In this document: in pieces, positions 2,387 to 55,821 of the stretch
Numbering within the stretch: the first letter of the stretch is position 1
Layout: every line of letters begins with the position of its first letter
Assembly (NCBI GenBank): GCA_019416935.1
Contig: DXWI01000013.1
Coordinates: 2,351 to 66,350, forward strand
Origin: Clostridiales bacterium
GTDB lineage: Bacteria > Bacillota > Clostridia > Christensenellales > CAG-138
Direction of reading: 5' to 3'
DNA length: 64,000 nt
Program-made: the position numbers and the translations under genes
The notes under the pieces: model-generated
The model's database searches: none
What the model was told of the DNA's origin: nothing
What the model saw: only the letters and a program-made list of their open reading frames with translations

Positions 2387-4030
2387 ATGGCATACCGTGC
2401 ACTCTATCGAAAATACCGGCCCACAAAATTCTCTGAGGTTGTCGGTCAGGACCATATTACCACCACGCTGCAAAACCAGATTGCAACGGGGCATGTTGCC
2501 CACGCCTATCTGTTCTGCGGCACGCGCGGCACCGGCAAAACCAGTACCGCGAAGATCTTTGCCCGCGCCGTCAACTGCCTCTCCCCCGAGGGCGGCGAGC
2601 CCTGCGGTCATTGCCATGCCTGCGAGGTCGCGCTGGACGCCGGCAACCCCGATATTACCGAAATCGATGCCGCAAGCAACAACGGCGTCGATGATATCCG
2701 TGCGCTCATCGAAAAAGCGCACTATGCGCCTCTGCAGCTGCAAACGCGCGTGTTCATCATCGACGAGGTGCATATGCTGTCCACCTCGGCGTTTAACGCG
2801 CTGCTCAAGACGCTCGAAGAACCGCCCGCGCACATCCTGTTCATTCTGGCTACGACGGAGCCACAAAAGCTCCCAGCGACCATCATTTCCCGCTGCCAGC
2901 GGTACGACTTTCACCGGCTTTCCATCCAGGACATCGTGCGCAATCTCAAAAGCGTGCTCCAGCGCGCCGGCGCATCCATCGATGAGGAGGGTCTGCTTCT
3001 GATTGCGCGCTCCGCCGACGGTGGTATGCGCGACGCGCTGTCCCTCGCGGACCAGTGCCTCGCCTTCTGCGGGGATCATGTTTCGGCAAAGGACGCATAT
3101 GACGTACTCGGCAGCATGGAACAGAGCTTCCTGTTCGACATGGCCGGAGCGCTCCTCGCCTCCGATGCGGCCAAGTCGCTGCACATGCTCGACGGCATCG
3201 TCCGCGGCGGGCGCGACCTCACGGTGTTCTGTCAGGATCTGTCCGCACACATGCGCGCGCTGCTGCTCGCAAAGACCTGCGGCCGCTGCGAGGATCTGCT
3301 GGACTGCACGAGCGACGCCATGGACCGCTATCTCGACCAGGCGGAGGGATGTTCGCACGCGCGGTTGCTGCTGTCGCTGCAAACGCTGCTCGGCGTACAG
3401 GGAGAGATGCGCTATCTGCCCTCGCCGCGCATGGCGCTCGAAAGCGCTCTCGTGAGCATTTGCAGGCCGGAGGACAACAGTTCGCTCCTCGCTCTGGAGG
3501 CCCGTCTCGACCGGTTGGAACAGCATGGCCTTCCGGCAAGCGCCGCGCCAAGGCCCAGCGAGCCGTCCGTACAGACCGCCGCTTCCGCTGCGGCGCCCGC
3601 CGTGCCGACCGTTCCGACGCCTTCGGCGCCGGCATCCAGCGCTGTACAGGAGCCGGCGAGCCCAGCGCAGGCTGCCGAGCCGTCGCCCGCGCCAACGGGC
3701 CGGAGCGATATGCGATGGAGTGCAGAATCGCTGTGGAGCGCAGCGCTTGATGAGCTCAAAAAACAGAACATCCTCATACACGCTATGGCAACCCCGGGCG
3801 TTGCCCAAAACCTGACGGACGATATGCTGACCGTGATCTTCCCCGAAACGCGCGTCACGCAGTACAACAGCATGTGCGCCCCGGTCAATCACAACAAATT
3901 GCAGGCGATCGTTTCGGCTTTGCGCGCCGGCACCGGCATCACGTTTATCAAGGGACAGGTTGCGCCCGTCTCACCGGAAACGGAGGCGCGGGCGAGAGAA
4001 ATTTTTGGCGACAAGCTCATCATTGAGTAA
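2387..4030 (+). CDS. dnaX: DNA polymerase III subunit gamma/tau
   Basis: MAYRALYRKYRPTKFSEVVGQDHI...FCGTRGTGKTSTAKIFA (Walker A), Zn module CGHCHAC, RBS GGGAGG. It sits in the conserved dnaX-ybaB-recR order. Confidence 0.95.
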   Translation: MAYRALYRKYRPTKFSEVVGQDHITTTLQNQIATGHVAHAYLFCGTRGTGKTSTAKIFARAVNCLSPEGGEPCGHCHACEVALDAGNPDITEIDAASNNGVDDIRALIEKAHYAPLQLQTRVFIIDEVHMLSTSAFNALLKTLEEPPAHILFILATTEPQKLPATIISRCQRYDFHRLSIQDIVRNLKSVLQRAGASIDEEGLLLIARSADGGMRDALSLADQCLAFCGDHVSAKDAYDVLGSMEQSFLFDMAGALLASDAAKSLHMLDGIVRGGRDLTVFCQDLSAHMRALLLAKTCGRCEDLLDCTSDAMDRYLDQAEGCSHARLLLSLQTLLGVQGEMRYLPSPRMALESALVSICRPEDNSSLLALEARLDRLEQHGLPASAAPRPSEPSVQTAASAAAPAVPTVPTPSAPASSAVQEPASPAQAAEPSPAPTGRSDMRWSAESLWSAALDELKKQNILIHAMATPGVAQNLTDDMLTVIFPETRVTQYNSMCAPVNHNKLQAIVSALRAGTGITFIKGQVAPVSPETEARAREIFGDKLIIE

Positions 4031-4073
4031 ACGATGAAGGGCAAATAACAGATTCGATTTGGAGGTTTGAACG

Positions 4074-4409
4074 ATGGCAAAAGGCGGATTCCCCGGAATG
4101 GGCGGCGCAAACATGCAGCAGTTGATGCGGCAGGCACAGAAGATGCAGCAGGATATGCTGCGTAAGCAGGAGGAGCTGCAATCGCGTGAGTTTACGTCCA
4201 CATCGGGCGGCGGCATGGTCACCGCAACCGTAACGGGCGCGAAGGAGCTCACGAATCTCACGATTTCCCCCGACTGCGTGGATCCCGACGATGTGGAAAT
4301 GCTGCAGGATCTGGTGCTGGCTGCGGTCAACGGTGCGCTGCACGAAGCGCTTGAAACGACCGAGCGCGAGATGGGCAAGCTGACCGGAGGAATGAACCTC
4401 GGTCTATGA
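4074..4409 (+). CDS. ybaB: YbaB/EbfC nucleoid-associated DNA-binding protein
   Basis: 111 aa: [28 protein letters not shown]...; RBS GGAGG at 4061. It lies between dnaX and recR. Confidence 0.95.
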
Positions 4410-5005
4410 TCACCATTGAACCCATCAACAAGCTCACAACCCAGCTCTCCCGTCTGCCCGGCATCGGCCAAAAGACGGCGCAGCGCCTTGCGTATCATAT
4501 TCTCGGCATTCCCGAGTCTCAGGCCACGGAACTGGCGGAGGCCATTTTGGATGCGCGCCGCAGCGTACACAACTGTCCGATCTGCGGCACCTATACGGAT
4601 GTGGAGCCATGCGCCATTTGCAGCGATGCGCAACGCGACGGCAGCACGCTCTGCGTAGTCTGCGAGGCGCGCGATGTGACGGCAATGGAAAAAACCCGCG
4701 AATACCACGGCAAATACCATGTGCTCCACGGCGTGCTCTCGCCGATGGACGGCGTCGGCCCGAACGATATCCGCATCAACGAGCTGCTTACGCGCGTCAA
4801 GGACGGCAGCGTGCGCGAGGTGATCCTCGCGACCAATCCGGACGTGGAGGGTGAGGCAACCGCCTCCTATATCGCACGCCTGCTCAAGCCCATGGGGATC
4901 ACCTGCACGCGCATTGCTCACGGCATTCCCATCGGCGGGAACCTGGAATATACCGACGAGGTAACGCTTGCCAAGGCGCTGGAAGGCCGCCGCAGCATGC
5001 TGTAA
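4406..5005 (+). CDS. recR: recombination protein RecR
   Basis: [20 protein letters not shown] helix-hairpin-helix, C4 zinc finger CPICG...CAIC, and a Toprim region. ATGA overlap with ybaB. Confidence 0.95.
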
Positions 5006-5015
5006 GGAGCTCACC

Positions 5016-5429
5016 ATGAAGATCGTTGTCATCGACGGACAGGGCGGCAAGATGGGCAGCGCGCTCATCGAACGCATCAAATCCGCGCTGCCGGAACACA
5101 CCTGCATCGCCGTGGGTACCAACAGCATCGCCACCGCCGCCATGCTGCGCGCGGGCGCGGACGCGGGCGCCACCGGCGAAAACCCGGTCATTGTGAACGT
5201 TCGTGACGCGGACGTGGTCGCGGGGCCCATCGGTATTCTCGCGGCCAACGCGCTGTATGGCGAGATCTCCCCCGCCATGGCCTGCGCCGTTGCCGAGTGT
5301 CCGGCGGTCAAGCTGCTTTTGCCCGTGAACCGCTGCAACAACATCGTGATCGGCGTTCGGGAACAGCCGCTGTCGGAATACCTGAAGGAAGCGGTGCAGC
5401 GCATCGCCGCCCTCTCGCAAGCAGAATAA
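5016..5429 (+). CDS. DUF3842-like protein
   Basis: ORF 4968..5429, trimmed to MKIVVIDGQGGKMGSALIERIK after the RBS AAGGAG. It resembles the DUF3842 proteins that commonly follow recR in Clostridia. Confidence 0.65.
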   Translation: MKIVVIDGQGGKMGSALIERIKSALPEHTCIAVGTNSIATAAMLRAGADAGATGENPVIVNVRDADVVAGPIGILAANALYGEISPAMACAVAECPAVKLLLPVNRCNNIVIGVREQPLSEYLKEAVQRIAALSQAE

Positions 5430-8249: not shown

Positions 8250-8510
8250 GGTATCCGCGATTCGGGTCTGTGGTTGTAAATCGATGCCAGTCGCAGGCAA
8301 AACGATCCACGTAAGCGAACGAAATAGTCCGTGAGCATGGTGCGGCTTAGACGTTAGTCCAACCGGTGTGTTTCACATGCCGAGAGAGTCAGTAGTGGGG
8401 AGCGACATGCTTAGGAGCGAACCCTCCAGTTGGCGGGTGTGGGGTCAAAGACCAGGTCAGCCGAAAAACGGGTGCCAAAAAACCAATTTTTGAAGGGGAA
8501 AGAAAACAAC
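8250..8510 (+). promoter_or_regulatory. long ORF-free 5' leader / candidate structured RNA upstream of the zinc-ribbon gene
   Basis: About 260 nt between the predicted promoter and the ATG at 8511, with no credible ORF. It is GC-balanced with several complementary segments. I could not match it to any riboswitch or RNA family I know. Confidence 0.3.
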
Positions 8511-13652: not shown

Positions 13653-14474
13653 TTATGCGTCCACGCGCTCCTTCACAAAGTTCCACGGCATCAGCAGGCG
13701 CTCAGACAGCGAAACCAACAGATACATGCCCCAGCCGAGCATGCTCATCATGATCAGCGATGCGAACATCGGCGGCGTGTCCATGGTGAGCTGCGCATTG
13801 ACGATCACATAGCCAAGGCCCTTATCCGAGGCGATCAATTCGCCCACGATCACGCCCATGATACACAGCGAGCTGCTGATCTTAAGACCGGAGAAGATAT
13901 AGGGCAGCGCGCCGGGCAGTTGGATTTTGAACAGGATCTGCCAGCGGTTTGCGCCCAGATAACGCACCAGATCGATCAGCTGCCGGTCCTGCGCGTTGAG
14001 GCCGGTCACGGTGTTGATGACCATCGGGAAAAAGCTGATCAGGAACGCAATGAGCACGTTGGTCTTGAGTCCGTAACCGATCCAGATCAAAAGAATCGGC
14101 GCGATGGCAATCATCGGCAGGGAACTGATGAAAATGAATGCTGGCATCAGGATGTTCTGCACCGCCTTCGACCAGACGATCAGGATGGCCAGCGCAATGC
14201 CGCCGGCGGCGACGACCGCAAAGCTGATGGCATACTCCTTGAGCGTGACCAGAATGTTGAGCGCCCAATGATAGTTGGCGTCCGGCTGCGGTACGAACAG
14301 GTGGTAGAATGCGCTCGACGGCGTGCAGAGGAACGCCTCCTGCACTTGGAACACGCGCACAAGCACCTCCCAGATGACGAGGAACAGCACGATGGAAATG
14401 ATGTTCTGCAATCCCTTCATGGGCTTTGCGCCATGCTTGGGCAGCATGCTGCCCTTCTGAACCTTACTCTTCAT
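13653..14474 (-). CDS. ABC transporter permease
   Basis: BPD_transp_1-type permease with an EAA-like loop DLVRYLGANRWQILFKIQLPGALPY. Confidence 0.9.
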   Translation of the reverse strand: MKSKVQKGSMLPKHGAKPMKGLQNIISIVLFLVIWEVLVRVFQVQEAFLCTPSSAFYHLFVPQPDANYHWALNILVTLKEYAISFAVVAAGGIALAILIVWSKAVQNILMPAFIFISSLPMIAIAPILLIWIGYGLKTNVLIAFLISFFPMVINTVTGLNAQDRQLIDLVRYLGANRWQILFKIQLPGALPYIFSGLKISSSLCIMGVIVGELIASDKGLGYVIVNAQLTMDTPPMFASLIMMSMLGWGMYLLVSLSERLLMPWNFVKERVDA

Positions 14475-14477
14475 GGA

Positions 14478-15272
14478 CTATTCCTCCAGTTCCGTTCTGT
14501 TCGCCCACGGCATGCACAGATGCTCTGCAACCGAGATCATGCGGAAGAACAGCAAGCCGATGGCCGCCAGCAAAAGCAGGCAGGCAAACATGGTCGCCAT
14601 GTCGATGTTGGCCTGTGCGGAACGCAGCAGACGGCCCAGTCCGCTCTTGGATGCAATGAACTCGCCGACAATCGAGCCGGTGACGCACATGGTCGCGCTC
14701 GTTTTGATGCCCGCGAACAGATGCGGCAGCGCATTGGGGATACGGATCTTTACGAAAATCTGCGCCTTGGTCGCGCCGAGATACCCCACCAGATCCAACA
14801 GGTTGTCGTCGATCTCGATGAGCCCCGTCACCGTATTGATGACGACAGGGAAGAACGCAACCAACACCGCAACGAAGATATTCGTTTTAAGGCCATAGCC
14901 GAACCAGAGCAGGAACAGCGGCGCAAGCGCGATCTTCGGGATGGAGTTAAGCAGTACGATCACCGGCATGATGAGCTTGTTGAGCGGCTTGGACCATGCG
15001 ATCAGGAGCGCCAGCAGCACGCCGGCCACCAGCGTGACCAGAAAGCTGAGCAGAATTTCGCTCGCGGTCGTGCCGATGTTGAGCCACCAGTTGTTCTTCG
15101 CGGCCATAGCCGGATCGAACAAACTTTTGAACACCAGCAGCGGCGAGGGCAGCACATATTTCTTGATGTGAAAGATTTCAATGGCTCCCTGCCAGATGCC
15201 GAGCACAGCCAGTACGCCGACAATCTTCCAGAGAACGGACTTTGCGCGCCGGAACGTCTTGGACTTTTTCAT
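14478..15272 (-). CDS. ABC transporter permease
   Basis: Paralogue of the neighbouring permease, with DLVGYLGATKAQIFVKIRIPNALPH. Its ATG overlaps the TGA of the upstream gene. Confidence 0.9.
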   Translation of the reverse strand: MKKSKTFRRAKSVLWKIVGVLAVLGIWQGAIEIFHIKKYVLPSPLLVFKSLFDPAMAAKNNWWLNIGTTASEILLSFLVTLVAGVLLALLIAWSKPLNKLIMPVIVLLNSIPKIALAPLFLLWFGYGLKTNIFVAVLVAFFPVVINTVTGLIEIDDNLLDLVGYLGATKAQIFVKIRIPNALPHLFAGIKTSATMCVTGSIVGEFIASKSGLGRLLRSAQANIDMATMFACLLLLAAIGLLFFRMISVAEHLCMPWANRTELEE

Positions 15273-16666
15273 GCTTTCTCCCCCTCCGCTTCCGCAGCCT
15301 GTCGGATCTCTTCAAGCCGGTACCCAAACCCGGTGCAGCCGAGCGATTCCAGCGAAACGCAGCCGTGATTGCGCTTGTACAGACCGGGATGAATGCGTGC
15401 CTCGTCGCGCGAGGCGTCCGGACAGAACTGCATGGAATTGACCTCCACGCCCATGATCGTGCCGGCGTTGGCAGCGAGCAGAACGTGCGGTATGATCGCC
15501 AGACGCGGATTCGTCAAATCCTGCACCATGATGGCCATGCCGTGCTGCCGCGCCCAACAGAGCGAGAGCATCGCGCCGGTCAGCGTTTTGCAGGTCTTGA
15601 GCGCGACGCCGTTCCAGCCCAGCGCATAGCCCTGCGCCACGAAGCGCCAGTCGTGCGCGCTCTCGTCCATGAGCAGGAGCTTGCGCCCGCTGACCGCGTG
15701 CACATCGATGCGATGCTTCTCGAGATCATAGGGAAAGGGCTGCTCGACATACAGGATGCGGTCGAAGATCGCTGGCTCCTCCGCCTTGAGACGGTCAAGC
15801 ATATCGCATACATACTCCGGTTCTTCCACGGTGCAGTTGAAATCCGTGGTCAGGTTTTCGATATTCTTTTTCAATGCGATACGACCAACGCGGACAATCC
15901 GCTCGTAATCCCAGGCTGCATCGTTTCCGGTCAGCTTGATCTTGAGGTTTTTCAACCCATCGCGATCGATCCAGTCCTCCAAAAGGACGGGGTACGCATC
16001 CCTCGGTTCCTTGCCGGTCAGGTCGTCCACGGTCAACGGATCCTTGCCGCCGACGAGATGGCACGCGGCGATCGAGGTCGGCGCCTTGCCACGCGGCACG
16101 AGATACGCCTCCGGATACCGGCCCTGAAACGCGGAACGGTATTCCTCCGTATAATAAGCAGACAAATCCCGATTCATGTACCTGGCGTTGAAGCAGTCGA
16201 ACACGGGAATTTGGTGGAGCTTTCCATACGCGTCATAGAGCGCCAGATCGAACGCCGAGCAGCACACCAGCGCCGCCAGATACGGCATCTGCTCCGCCTC
16301 GGGTCGATTTGCGTTCTCTTTGGTCAGGCATTCGCCAAGCCGCGCCTCGAGAAAATGCGCGCCGATCTCCATCGGATGGCCGACGGTGGTTTCCTGCCGC
16401 CATGCCGCGCCCAGCGTCGTGCAAAAGGCGCGCATCCGCTGCACGCGCGTTTTCTGGGACAGCTCGCTCGGCCAGCTCCATGCGGCGGCCAGCGGCGTTT
16501 CGCCGTGTCCGCAGGCGGTGCGCCCATCCTCGCCCTGCAGGGTCACGCGCACAAGCACGGTTTCCCCGCCGGTTGACACTTCATGTCCGAATTTGAGCGG
16601 CACACGGTTGTCGTACCGAAAAAACGCGGTCGTTACATCCACAATAGCAGCATTCATTCCATTCAT
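15269..16666 (-). CDS. enolase-superfamily enzyme (muconate-lactonizing/racemase-like subgroup)
   Basis: KIKLTG (KxK), TTDFN, YVEQPFP, LLMDES and ALKTCK fit the enolase-superfamily metal ligands and acid/base lysines. RBS GGAG. Confidence 0.8.
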   Translation of the reverse strand: MNGMNAAIVDVTTAFFRYDNRVPLKFGHEVSTGGETVLVRVTLQGEDGRTACGHGETPLAAAWSWPSELSQKTRVQRMRAFCTTLGAAWRQETTVGHPMEIGAHFLEARLGECLTKENANRPEAEQMPYLAALVCCSAFDLALYDAYGKLHQIPVFDCFNARYMNRDLSAYYTEEYRSAFQGRYPEAYLVPRGKAPTSIAACHLVGGKDPLTVDDLTGKEPRDAYPVLLEDWIDRDGLKNLKIKLTGNDAAWDYERIVRVGRIALKKNIENLTTDFNCTVEEPEYVCDMLDRLKAEEPAIFDRILYVEQPFPYDLEKHRIDVHAVSGRKLLLMDESAHDWRFVAQGYALGWNGVALKTCKTLTGAMLSLCWARQHGMAIMVQDLTNPRLAIIPHVLLAANAGTIMGVEVNSMQFCPDASRDEARIHPGLYKRNHGCVSLESLGCTGFGYRLEEIRQAAEAEGEKA

Positions 16667-51421: not shown

Positions 51422-51463
51422 CCGCCGGGTCGATCAGCGCCCCGATAGGCTGCGCTGCCGTCA

Positions 51464-51730
51464 CCTGAAAGGAGCGTCCCCTTGAAGGGGACGCTCCTTT
51501 CAGGTTGTCAAAAAAGTGACGATGTGAACCGCTCCGCCGGTTCGCGCACGCATATGATGCAGGAAGAACCACGGGATCTGTCAAAAACGGCGGCATGCAC
51601 GCCGGTTTTGACACCTTGCGGGTAGGTTTGCAGCGTCAAACCTACCCGTGTATCCCTGCTGTAGCAGGTATCCCGTCAAAAAACACAGTTTTTTGACGGT
51701 CTGAGCGTCCCCTTGAAGGGGACGCTCCTC
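51464..51730 (-). repeat. multi-hairpin intergenic element, copy 2 (inverted relative to copy 1)
   Basis: Hairpins at 51464-51504, 51580-51612, 51619-51648, 51655-51668, 51673-51699 and 51703-51727. The reverse complement aligns along the whole length of 46384-46636. Confidence 0.7.
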
Positions 51731-51837
51731 TCTTTCTGGCGAAATAAAATAACCAAATATGCCCCCGCCCGCTTGACCGCAAGCTAGGGATGGAGCACCA
51801 TCAAGCAACGGTTGTTGACCGGCAGAGAGCGCAGGCC

Positions 51838-52915: not shown

Positions 52916-52925
52916 CAAAACCAAT

Positions 52926-53270
52926 TGCGAGCAAGCCGTAAGCCGAGTTCTGTCTAAGGACGGCCATCTATCTCTGTCCCGCCGTCACCGGCGGGCTCAT
53001 GCGATTACCGGGAGCGTAGCGGGCCGCTATTGAATGCTCCCATTCCAATCTTGCACCGAGTGGGGTTTACAGGACGGTCAAGTCGCCATGCCGTCGGTGA
53101 GCTCTTACCTCGCCTTTCCACCCTTACCGCACCGAATTGATGCGGCGGTATCTCTCTGTTGCACTTTCCTTGGAGTCGCCTCCACCTGACGTTATCAGGC
53201 ACTCTGCCCTGCGGTGCTCGGACTTTCCTCCCCGCCCAAACGGGAGGGGCAGCCGTCTGTCTTACTCGCA
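52926..53270 (-). ncRNA. rnpB: RNase P RNA, bacterial class A
   Basis: The minus strand contains GGGGAGGAAAGUCCGAGC, GGGCAGAGUGCCUGAUAACGUCAGG, GUGCAACAGAGAG, GGUAAGGGUGGAAAGGCGAGGUAAGAGCUCACC, GUAAACCCCACUCGGUGCAAG and ACAGAACUCGGCUUA in the E. coli M1 RNA order. The P1 helix UGCGAGUAAG/CUUGCUCGCA sets the ends. Confidence 0.92.
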
Positions 53271-55534: not shown

Positions 55535-55701
55535 GGGCTTTGCCGCATGGCGCGGGCGCTGCGGGGCGGCGGGCCGCTGCCCCGCTGCCGGTATTCGCCG
55601 TACCGATCGGCGGGCGGTCAAGCGGCGCTGTTTGTATGCGCGCTTCGCTGCATCATTCCCCCCCTCACGGCTCGCCGCTGCAAACGAAGGCAACGAGTTG
55701 G

Positions 55702-55729
55702 AAAAACCGGCGGCAGTGCCGCCGGTTTG
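55702..55729 (-). terminator. rho-independent terminator after the aminotransferase gene
   Basis: The minus strand reads AAACCGGCGGC-ACUG-CCGCCGGUUU followed by UUCC. Confidence 0.6.
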
Positions 55730-55821
55730 TATCGATTCTATGGCTGTATCACCGCAATTTACACGCACGGCCGGCGGATAATTTCCATAGAAACCCGCTT
55801 GAGCCGTGCCGAAACTCCCGA

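Follow-up and report, generated by a model that had tools for sequence, protein, structure and literature searches.

Group IIC introns home to intrinsic terminator stem-loops, which they recognize by structure. For IS1272 and TnSha1, which belong to the IS1182 family, insertion into terminator hairpins without sequence specificity has been described (PMC4923244). Both delete the stem-loop that they target, IS1272 deleting or replacing it without any duplication (PMC4923244, PMC5678879). In the model for IS1272 a hypothetical pathway is drawn by which attack on the 5' feet of a cruciform is expected to duplicate the stem-loop (PMC5678879, Fig. 13, pathway b). Here we describe two intervals in a 64,000-nt stretch of DNA, the whole of which was analysed and is called the window. 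Both are likely to have arisen by insertion of members of a single family of small transposable elements, non-coding and non-autonomous, that is found in uncultured Christensenellales. The element is multicopy, polymorphic for its insertions and bounded by terminal inverted repeats, it targets terminators, and it leaves a direct duplication of the size of the target structure.

Results

Two inverted copies between convergent genes

An earlier note on the window had pointed to two inverted copies that align end to end. This was borne out: the reverse complement of 51464-51730 aligns over its full length with 46384-46636 (+) at 83% mean column identity. The junction and loop strings that were said to be conserved were found as described, and the loop differs as had been noted (ACGTTG versus ACGCTG). 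The homologous core comprises about 205 nt (46406-46611 versus 51706-51500, 76-79% identical, BLAST E=2e-40 within the window). The outer 25-30 nt or so of each interval are non-homologous between the copies and form a copy-specific palindromic hairpin on both sides of the core. The following features were assigned.

46384..46409 (+), copy 1, left duplicated host terminator hairpin GAGCCCGGCGAACTTTCGTCGGGCTC, direct repeat family D14
46410..46609 (+), copy 1, element core, nhmmer against the 18-copy profile E=1e-62
46413-46439 (+), copy 1, perfect 12-bp hairpin that follows the left end AGGCC
46444-46457 (+), copy 1, hairpin 2
46464-46493 (+), copy 1, hairpin 3
46500-46532 (+), copy 1, GTCAAAA hairpin 4
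46542-46573 (+), copy 1, GGTTC...GAACC region
46595-46609 (+), copy 1, right end CTTTTTCAACAGACT
46610..46635 (+), copy 1, right duplicated terminator hairpin GAGCCCGGCGAACTTTCGCCGGACTT, family D14
51703..51727 (-), copy 2, left-end-side hairpin GAGCGTCCCCTTCAAGGGGACGCTC (minus strand), family D7, terminator-like site
51497..51702 (-), copy 2, element core, nhmmer against the 18-copy profile E=8e-66
51472..51496 (-), copy 2, right-end-side hairpin, family D7, inverted repeat I10
51728..51740 (-), 13 nt GCCAGAAAGAGAG (minus strand) beside the left-end-side hairpin of copy 2
55669..55777 (+), third, decayed element fragment, profile positions 62-170, found by BLAST and nhmmer (E=1.4e-8)

On the minus strand the core of copy 2 starts with AGACC, continues with the left-end hairpin (51699-51673) and ends in CTTTTTTGACAACCTGAAAG. 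Its right-end-side hairpin together with the flanks makes up a 21-bp perfect palindrome (51463-51505). The hairpins flanking both copies score as terminator-like sites. The site at the right hairpin of copy 1 is predicted at 46614-46631, and this hairpin is followed by a T-rich tail and separated by 14 nt from the stop codon of the phosphofructokinase (PFK) gene. The decayed fragment lacks the left end and is situated in the spacer between aminotransferase and TrmK genes.

Each copy is situated between convergent housekeeping genes: copy 1 has a VCA0040-like gene and PFK as neighbours, copy 2 a DUF421/YetF gene and the gene for tryptophanyl-tRNA synthetase (TrpRS). The 4.8 kb between them codes for PFK, ApbE, an AhpC-like protein, EamA and YetF. 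A Pfam search with 28 window ORFs returned housekeeping genes only and no transposase domain. Two long ORFs, 3971-5404 (-) of 477 aa and 13920-15368 (+) of 482 aa, had no Pfam match at E<=0.01 and are putative genes. The closest named relative is a Candidatus Aphodomorpha MAG, and an ENA metagenome contig is near-identical to the window. RNase P RNA and raiA RNA were the only Rfam matches in the window: raiA RNA at 8257-8469 (+) with 180 bits, and bacterial RNase P RNA class A at 52924-53268 (-) with 266 bits, about 70 nt upstream of the TrpRS start codon. Between the terminator at 46203-46231 and the left hairpin of copy 1 a non-coding segment of 152 nt was noticed (46232-46383, strong predicted fold, -51.8 kcal/mol), for which the sister strains have only about 48 nt and which is repeated in none of the fetched loci.

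A multicopy family with conserved ends and modular interiors

Scanning for further members was performed with the pattern of the left-end hairpin, CCGTCAAAAAAC-NNN-GTTTTTTGACGG. In metagenomes 29 loci were found, mostly in two assemblies, each of uniform coverage. These hold about 20 full-length copies, which are on contigs of the same species (Ca. Aphodomorpha-like, Christensenellales) and 72-97% identical to the window copies. The genome scan gave 95 loci; among the 80 matches listed, at least 50 were located in one Christensenellales MAG and at least 13 in a second, and other loci were in MAGs labelled Oscillospiraceae, Ca. Apopatocola and Peptococcaceae. Viral contigs were without a match in three motif scans. 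A looser left-end scan of these contigs produced 112 matches, which is about the chance number by our own estimate, with one real copy (L177). A BLAST search of annotated plasmids and phages with copy 1 was likewise negative.

The elements are 150-350 nt long, those of the window subfamily about 200 nt. All subfamilies have in common the left end nAGRCC-GTCAAAAAAC-NNN-GTTTTTTGAC-GG and the right end TTTTTTGACA-NNCTG(A). The ends form imperfect 16-nt terminal inverted repeats, nAGRCCGTCAAAAAAC on the left and GTTTTTTGACA-NNCTG(A) on the right, and doubling of the left repeat creates the perfect 12-bp hairpin. The ends alone are conserved across subfamilies, the interiors in other genomes being unrelated to those of the window. 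Each interior is a string of hairpins that is modular and varies with the species. The window subfamily has five GTCAAAA motifs, of which the left-end hairpin and hairpin 4 contain two each and the right end one. In most of the 18 aligned copies all six frames are interrupted, no ORF is conserved and none is open across them, which agrees with the earlier note that selection is not on a peptide.

Truncated relics akin to the decayed window fragment were present in L020 (2158-2264), L032 (578-658) and L042 (6620-6700). L074 (6880-7460, minus strand) contains an array of a lone left-end hairpin and two truncated elements with small unrelated hairpins in between. This suggests repeated insertion at targets regenerated by earlier insertions. 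A left-end hairpin without an identified element body directly follows a gene end in L040, L041 and L044; possibly it is a relic, or else a unit of its own. In L026 and L102 the left-end hairpin abuts further conserved structured sequence, and these two look like other subfamilies. Copies in L003, L016, L018, L021, L025, L028, L029, L035 and L043 are truncated where the contig or the stored locus ends. L003 and L018, both of them whole contigs, break off within the element, which fits a repeat that disrupts short-read assemblies.

Filled and empty sites in close relatives

In the loci L004-L009, of which the TrpRS is 96% identical and the gene order that of the window, the element is absent at both sites. 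The TrpRS-DUF421 spacer measures 154-225 bp in these loci versus 416 bp in the window, and the PFK-VCA0040 spacer 137 bp versus about 457 bp. After PFK, L004 and L006 have a single hairpin GGAGCCCGGCATCGTTTTGCCGGGCTCC, as against two closely related hairpin copies around the window element. A clean empty site was found in L140, with 99% identical TrpRS, where the TrpRS-DUF421 spacer contains one hairpin and no element. It reads ...TTATTTC/GAGCGTCCCCTTGAAGGGGACGCTC/CTTTCAGGTG..., and the window has that hairpin, the element and that hairpin again. With the element profile, nhmmer gave no match in the empty loci L140 and L004-L009. The same insertion as copy 2 occupies the orthologous site in L019, which is from a second assembly.

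The empty site of L140 also lacks the 13 nt 51728-51740 present in the filled site. They read GACAGAAAGAGAG in L019 and resemble the tail of the element right end. Since L140 shares flank variants with the filled L019, its state may be a loss and not the ancestral one. The loop of the hairpins flanking copy 2 is TTCAA in both window copies, and TTGAA in the filled L019 and the empty L140; the central loop base has flipped together in both hairpins, by gene conversion or by hairpin inversion. In L009 (about 2990-3070) the TrpRS-DUF421 spacer exceeds that of L004, L006 and L007 by an insertion of about 70 bp that looks like a duplication and is unrelated to the element.

The whole target hairpin is duplicated

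The best direct repeat between the two flanks was located in 51 elements, structural information not being used. All 51 have flanking direct repeats that are specific to the locus, and no intact copy lacks such a duplication of the local stem-loop in its entirety. The repeats keep constant offsets from the end motifs, with modes of 6 nt ahead of GTCAAAAAAC and 5 nt past TTGACA. Among the 42 elements with clean boundaries, repeat length is 17-34 nt with a median of 25, and it correlates with the span of the hairpin (Pearson r=0.90), the repeat being longer than its hairpin by 0-1 nt in 28 of the 42. Because repeat length tracks hairpin span, the target stem-loop is duplicated as a whole whatever its size. 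It is the hairpin, and no fixed stagger, that determines how long the duplication is (17-34 nt); a single subfamily and a single genome cover this full range. Asymmetric loops recur in the same orientation, which shows the duplication to be direct rather than of the fold-back type. In 28 of the 51 repeat pairs 1-5 mismatches were counted, as expected of old duplications that drift apart.

No sequence relationship exists among the targets, almost all of which are hairpins flanked by A-rich and T-rich stretches. Within the five flanking bases A makes up 58% upstream and T 61% downstream, as expected of rho-independent terminators, which are often bidirectional. The target palindrome often runs 3-5 A-T pairs beyond the duplicated segment. 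As a consequence, simple cutting at the base of a fully extruded cruciform does not explain the exact cut positions.

Fragments resembling the right end (GACAG.., TTTTGACAGGC, CTGACAAGCG) were seen just outside the left hairpin in window copy 2 and L019, L017 and L031a (L031 5286). Another lies beside the single hairpin of the 'empty' PFK site of L004 (near 16000). Such fragments outside the left hairpin are not predicted by a single clean insertion; they may be left over from previous insertions at this hot spot, or else result from the mechanism as a by-product. Among the fetched loci no convincing excision footprint, i.e. two hairpin copies with a short remnant in between, was detected. L046 was considered as such a footprint and rejected, as it is an internal tandem repeat of another subfamily.

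These data bear on the possibility that the element derives from the IS1202 group or from a Cas1-type integrase (a ruler like that of casposons or CRISPR), with long staggered cuts of fixed length and a mere preference for terminators. Cas1 integrases duplicate a palindromic repeat, the length of which is similar to that of the present hairpin duplications. The duplications of 16-28 bp made by the IS1202 group likewise speak for this origin (PMC10132070). We nevertheless hold it to be far-fetched. The duplications found here vary between 17 and 34 nt within a single subfamily and genome, following the size of the hairpin, the ends are nAGRCC...NNCTG(A) as opposed to the 5'-TGT...ACA-3' of the IS1202 family (PMC10132070), and neither a Cas1 nor a TnsB-like gene was seen.

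Pairing is maintained in the hairpins

Compared with shuffled sequences the two window copies fold strongly (z = -9.7 and -11.4). In the alignment of 18 copies 93.6% of the cells of the named hairpins are paired, versus 38-45% after the partners have been shifted out of register. Changes on both sides affect eight pairs, of which the 12-bp stem has six and the GTCAAAA stem two. The observed covariation score was reached by 0 of 500 shuffles and by no slid register, and homologous hairpins are still paired in the distant subfamilies L063 and L074. Pairing is maintained. Together with the absence of a conserved ORF this implies that it is a hairpin-forming nucleic acid that is maintained and not a peptide. 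Some G.U pairs occur on the top strand of the element; they are weak evidence for strand-specific folding, as the structures were derived from the same sequences.

The earlier note had described a 12-bp stem that differs by three pairs between the copies, CTTGCAGGTTTG/CAAACCTGCAAG versus CGGGTAGGTTTG/CAAACCTACCCG, and indeed all three differences are compensated. It had also proposed that covariation be followed in more homologues, and in the 18 aligned copies compensated changes are seen too. The replacement of all five pairs of the inner stem, on the other hand, did not hold, as it arises from comparing the stems out of register. In register, compensation is confined to column pair 120-134 (A-T to G-C); at pair 118-136 the G-C of copy 1 corresponds to a C/T mismatch in copy 2, and the other three pairs are identical. 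The conclusion that the fold is under selection stands in so far as a hairpin-forming nucleic acid is maintained, but not in the sense of a conserved RNA gene.

A free-standing gene for a structured small RNA, duplicated and insulated by terminators and with the RNA fold as its functional product, would account for the covariation in hairpins 3 and 4 with its high proportion of paired cells, for the very negative folding scores, for the lack of a conserved ORF, and for several G.U pairs on the given strand that are A/C mismatches on the other. Such a gene is very improbable. It would be missing at the orthologous loci of strains with 96-99% identical TrpRS, and would exist in dozens of copies per genome, bounded by terminal inverted repeats, always at terminators and with flanking duplications specific to each locus. 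Truncated relics exist, and between subfamilies only the termini are conserved, the interiors being unrelated. No sigma-70-like promoter was predicted within or adjoining either window copy. Rfam at gathering and permissive thresholds, searched with the window copies and 13 loci of other subfamilies, gave no match to the element, group II introns included. A closing RNA stem formed by the two flanking hairpins was considered and rejected, because these hairpins are host-derived and drift independently.

In palindromic DNA, compensated changes alone are no pointer to RNA. They may also stem from selection on a substrate of transposition in single-stranded or cruciform form, from the exchange of whole hairpin modules or from templated correction between the arms. 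Pairing may accordingly be maintained by a role of the RNA (e.g. in the stability of an extended 3' UTR), a role of single-stranded or cruciform DNA, exchange of modules or self-correction of palindromes. The last two would leave the fold without any selection, palindromes being corrected by arm-to-arm templated repair and hairpin modules being swapped by recombination. In agreement with this, hairpin 3 has given way entirely to an unrelated hairpin GGCAGAGCCTG.., or has been supplemented by it, in L017, L018, L023b, L027 and L031a, hairpin-4 variants occur in mosaic combinations with hairpin-3 variants, and the central loop base of both hairpins around copy 2 differs jointly between the window and L019. 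Even so, an unselected fold appears rather unlikely, since three positions of hairpin 3 show three Watson-Crick pair types with few broken intermediates and pairing of homologous hairpins extends across distant subfamilies. It would moreover be compatible with a mobile element and does not replace that explanation.

Compensated changes in an interior that consists almost entirely of hairpins, and the perfect subterminal hairpin on the left, would also suit mobility by way of a single-stranded intermediate, in which an HUH enzyme (IS200/IS605 or IS91-like) or an RNA-mediated process recognizes the terminator hairpin in single-stranded form, in the manner of group IIC introns. The single strand would in that case need the internal hairpins. 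The target is defined by structure and not by sequence, and the bias of G.U pairs towards one strand gives a hint that folding is strand-specific. Known single-strand transposons and group IIC introns, however, leave their target unduplicated, whereas here the whole stem-loop is directly duplicated. The terminal inverted repeats are typical of double-strand DDE substrates, the Rfam search yielded neither a group II nor another ribozyme match, and no HUH or RT gene was seen near any copy in the genomes, which were partly sampled. We therefore regard a single-stranded route as improbable.

A possible mode of insertion and the search for a partner

For the preferred explanation, a non-autonomous transposable element, the following course of events can be proposed. 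A transposase supplied in trans would bind the GTCAAAAAA motifs and link the ends of the element to the target stem-loop at its two symmetric feet. In the simplest case, the target palindrome would be extruded as a cruciform, placing both feet side by side. As the feet of a cruciform are adjacent regardless of stem length, an enzyme of fixed geometry would give a duplication of variable length. Gap repair would then copy the stem-loop on both sides and so rebuild the terminator at each flank. The five GTCAAAA motifs would suit a multi-site arrangement for binding of the transposase. Because the inner sides of the hairpins adjoin element sequence and no T tract, transcripts from the flanking genes probably pass through the element and terminate at the distal hairpin, and the element would form part of 3' UTRs.

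In about 1 Mb of element-rich loci, on fragmentary MAG contigs, no autonomous partner was found: apart from the window copies no pair of ends 0.4-6 kb apart encloses an ORF. Insertion sequences are often missing from such assemblies. Searches among the fetched loci for looser end pairs and for repeated transposase-like ORFs also gave none. The only ORF-enclosing pair of ends is that of the two window copies themselves, around housekeeping genes. A composite transposon made of the two inverted copies was rejected, because the enclosed genes are housekeeping genes that are syntenic in strains with neither copy.

It is tentatively suggested that this is an undocumented mode of transposition, in which a possibly new transposase attacks both feet of the stem-loop, the duplication comprises the whole hairpin, and two terminators and targets are regenerated per insertion. 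If so, the elements would be near-neutral passengers of 3' UTRs that build arrays of hairpin, element and hairpin, formally analogous to repeat-spacer units.

Discussion

That the target structure sets the length of the duplication would mean that the enzyme reads the shape of the DNA (a cruciform or hairpin foot) and neither a sequence nor a fixed ruler. This would explain how terminators can be saturated by a mobile element without disruption of genes or of termination. The elements provide a natural data set of hundreds of insertions, each with its own copy of the target, for working out the cut positions. They also matter for annotation: they would extend 3' UTRs in Christensenellales, they break metagenome assemblies (many copies are at contig ends), and because their stems covary they can be mistaken for structured RNA genes.

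In several respects the elements resemble bacterial MITEs (Correia, RUP, BOX, Chunjie, QMITE), which are likewise small, non-coding, multicopy and intergenic and have terminal inverted repeats (reviewed in PMC10969869). Strong secondary structure and truncated variants are shared as well, and so, probably, is co-transcription with neighbouring genes (PMC10969869). Except for the missing partner, the structural definition of a MITE applies. Known MITEs, however, make short duplications of a fixed 2-10 bp (PMC10969869), whereas here the duplication is a whole hairpin of variable length. The MITE SPRITE is itself terminator-like, but the host terminator is not duplicated. Palindromes of the REP/REPIN-RAYT type, of 20-40 nt, follow one genome-wide consensus and flank a RAYT gene. 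The flanking hairpins described here are specific to the locus and have no consensus in common, but the conserved left-end hairpin does occur alone in L040, L041 and L044.

Among elements with long duplications the IS1202 group (ISNCY) is comparable, with 16-28 bp (PMC10132070). In that group the length is fixed for each IS, the ends are TGT...ACA and no hairpin target is reported (PMC10132070); the two defining features, fixed length and TGT...ACA ends, are not found in the present elements. CRISPR spacer integration and casposons, which depend on Cas1 integrases, are also comparable (PMC4940900, PMC5137440). The likeness lies in a staggered attack at the two borders of a partly palindromic unit followed by fill-in. 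The arrangement of unit, insert and unit, regeneration of the target and the possibility of arrays are also shared. In those systems the target is a specific repeat or gene end and the duplication has a fixed length; the present loci showed no Cas1. The ribozymes known as group IIC introns measure several hundred nucleotides or more and insert downstream of the hairpin in a defined orientation and without duplication. The present elements differ from them by their length of about 200 nt and by the lack of a ribozyme match in Rfam.

To leave a full copy of a hairpin on each side is a rarely documented target mark for a transposon. Duplication of a whole terminator is not mentioned in a recent review of prokaryotic MITEs (PMC10969869), and the literature searched gave no description of it either. 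For the IS1182 family itself the situation may be different. ISfinder gives direct repeats of 0-60 bp for this family, a range that would fit these elements. Duplicating members may thus already be catalogued, which tempers the claim to novelty.

The closest parallel is offered by IS1272 and TnSha1. In common with these, the target is a stem-loop or rho-independent terminator without a consensus in its primary sequence, insertion takes place at the foot of the hairpin, and the hosts are Firmicutes. The partial terminal duplications of IS1272L recall the right-end-like fragments outside some of the left hairpins described here. IS1272 is an autonomous IS of 1.9 kb with a DDE transposase, whereas the present elements measure 150-350 nt, have no ORF and are without a partner among the sequences searched. 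Unlike IS1272, by which the stem-loop is deleted, they keep the target stem-loop intact and duplicate it on both sides. By analogy, the behaviour can be described as IS1272-like targeting of hairpins with the opposite outcome for the target, and it would constitute the duplicating counterpart of the stem-loop-replacing insertion of IS1272.
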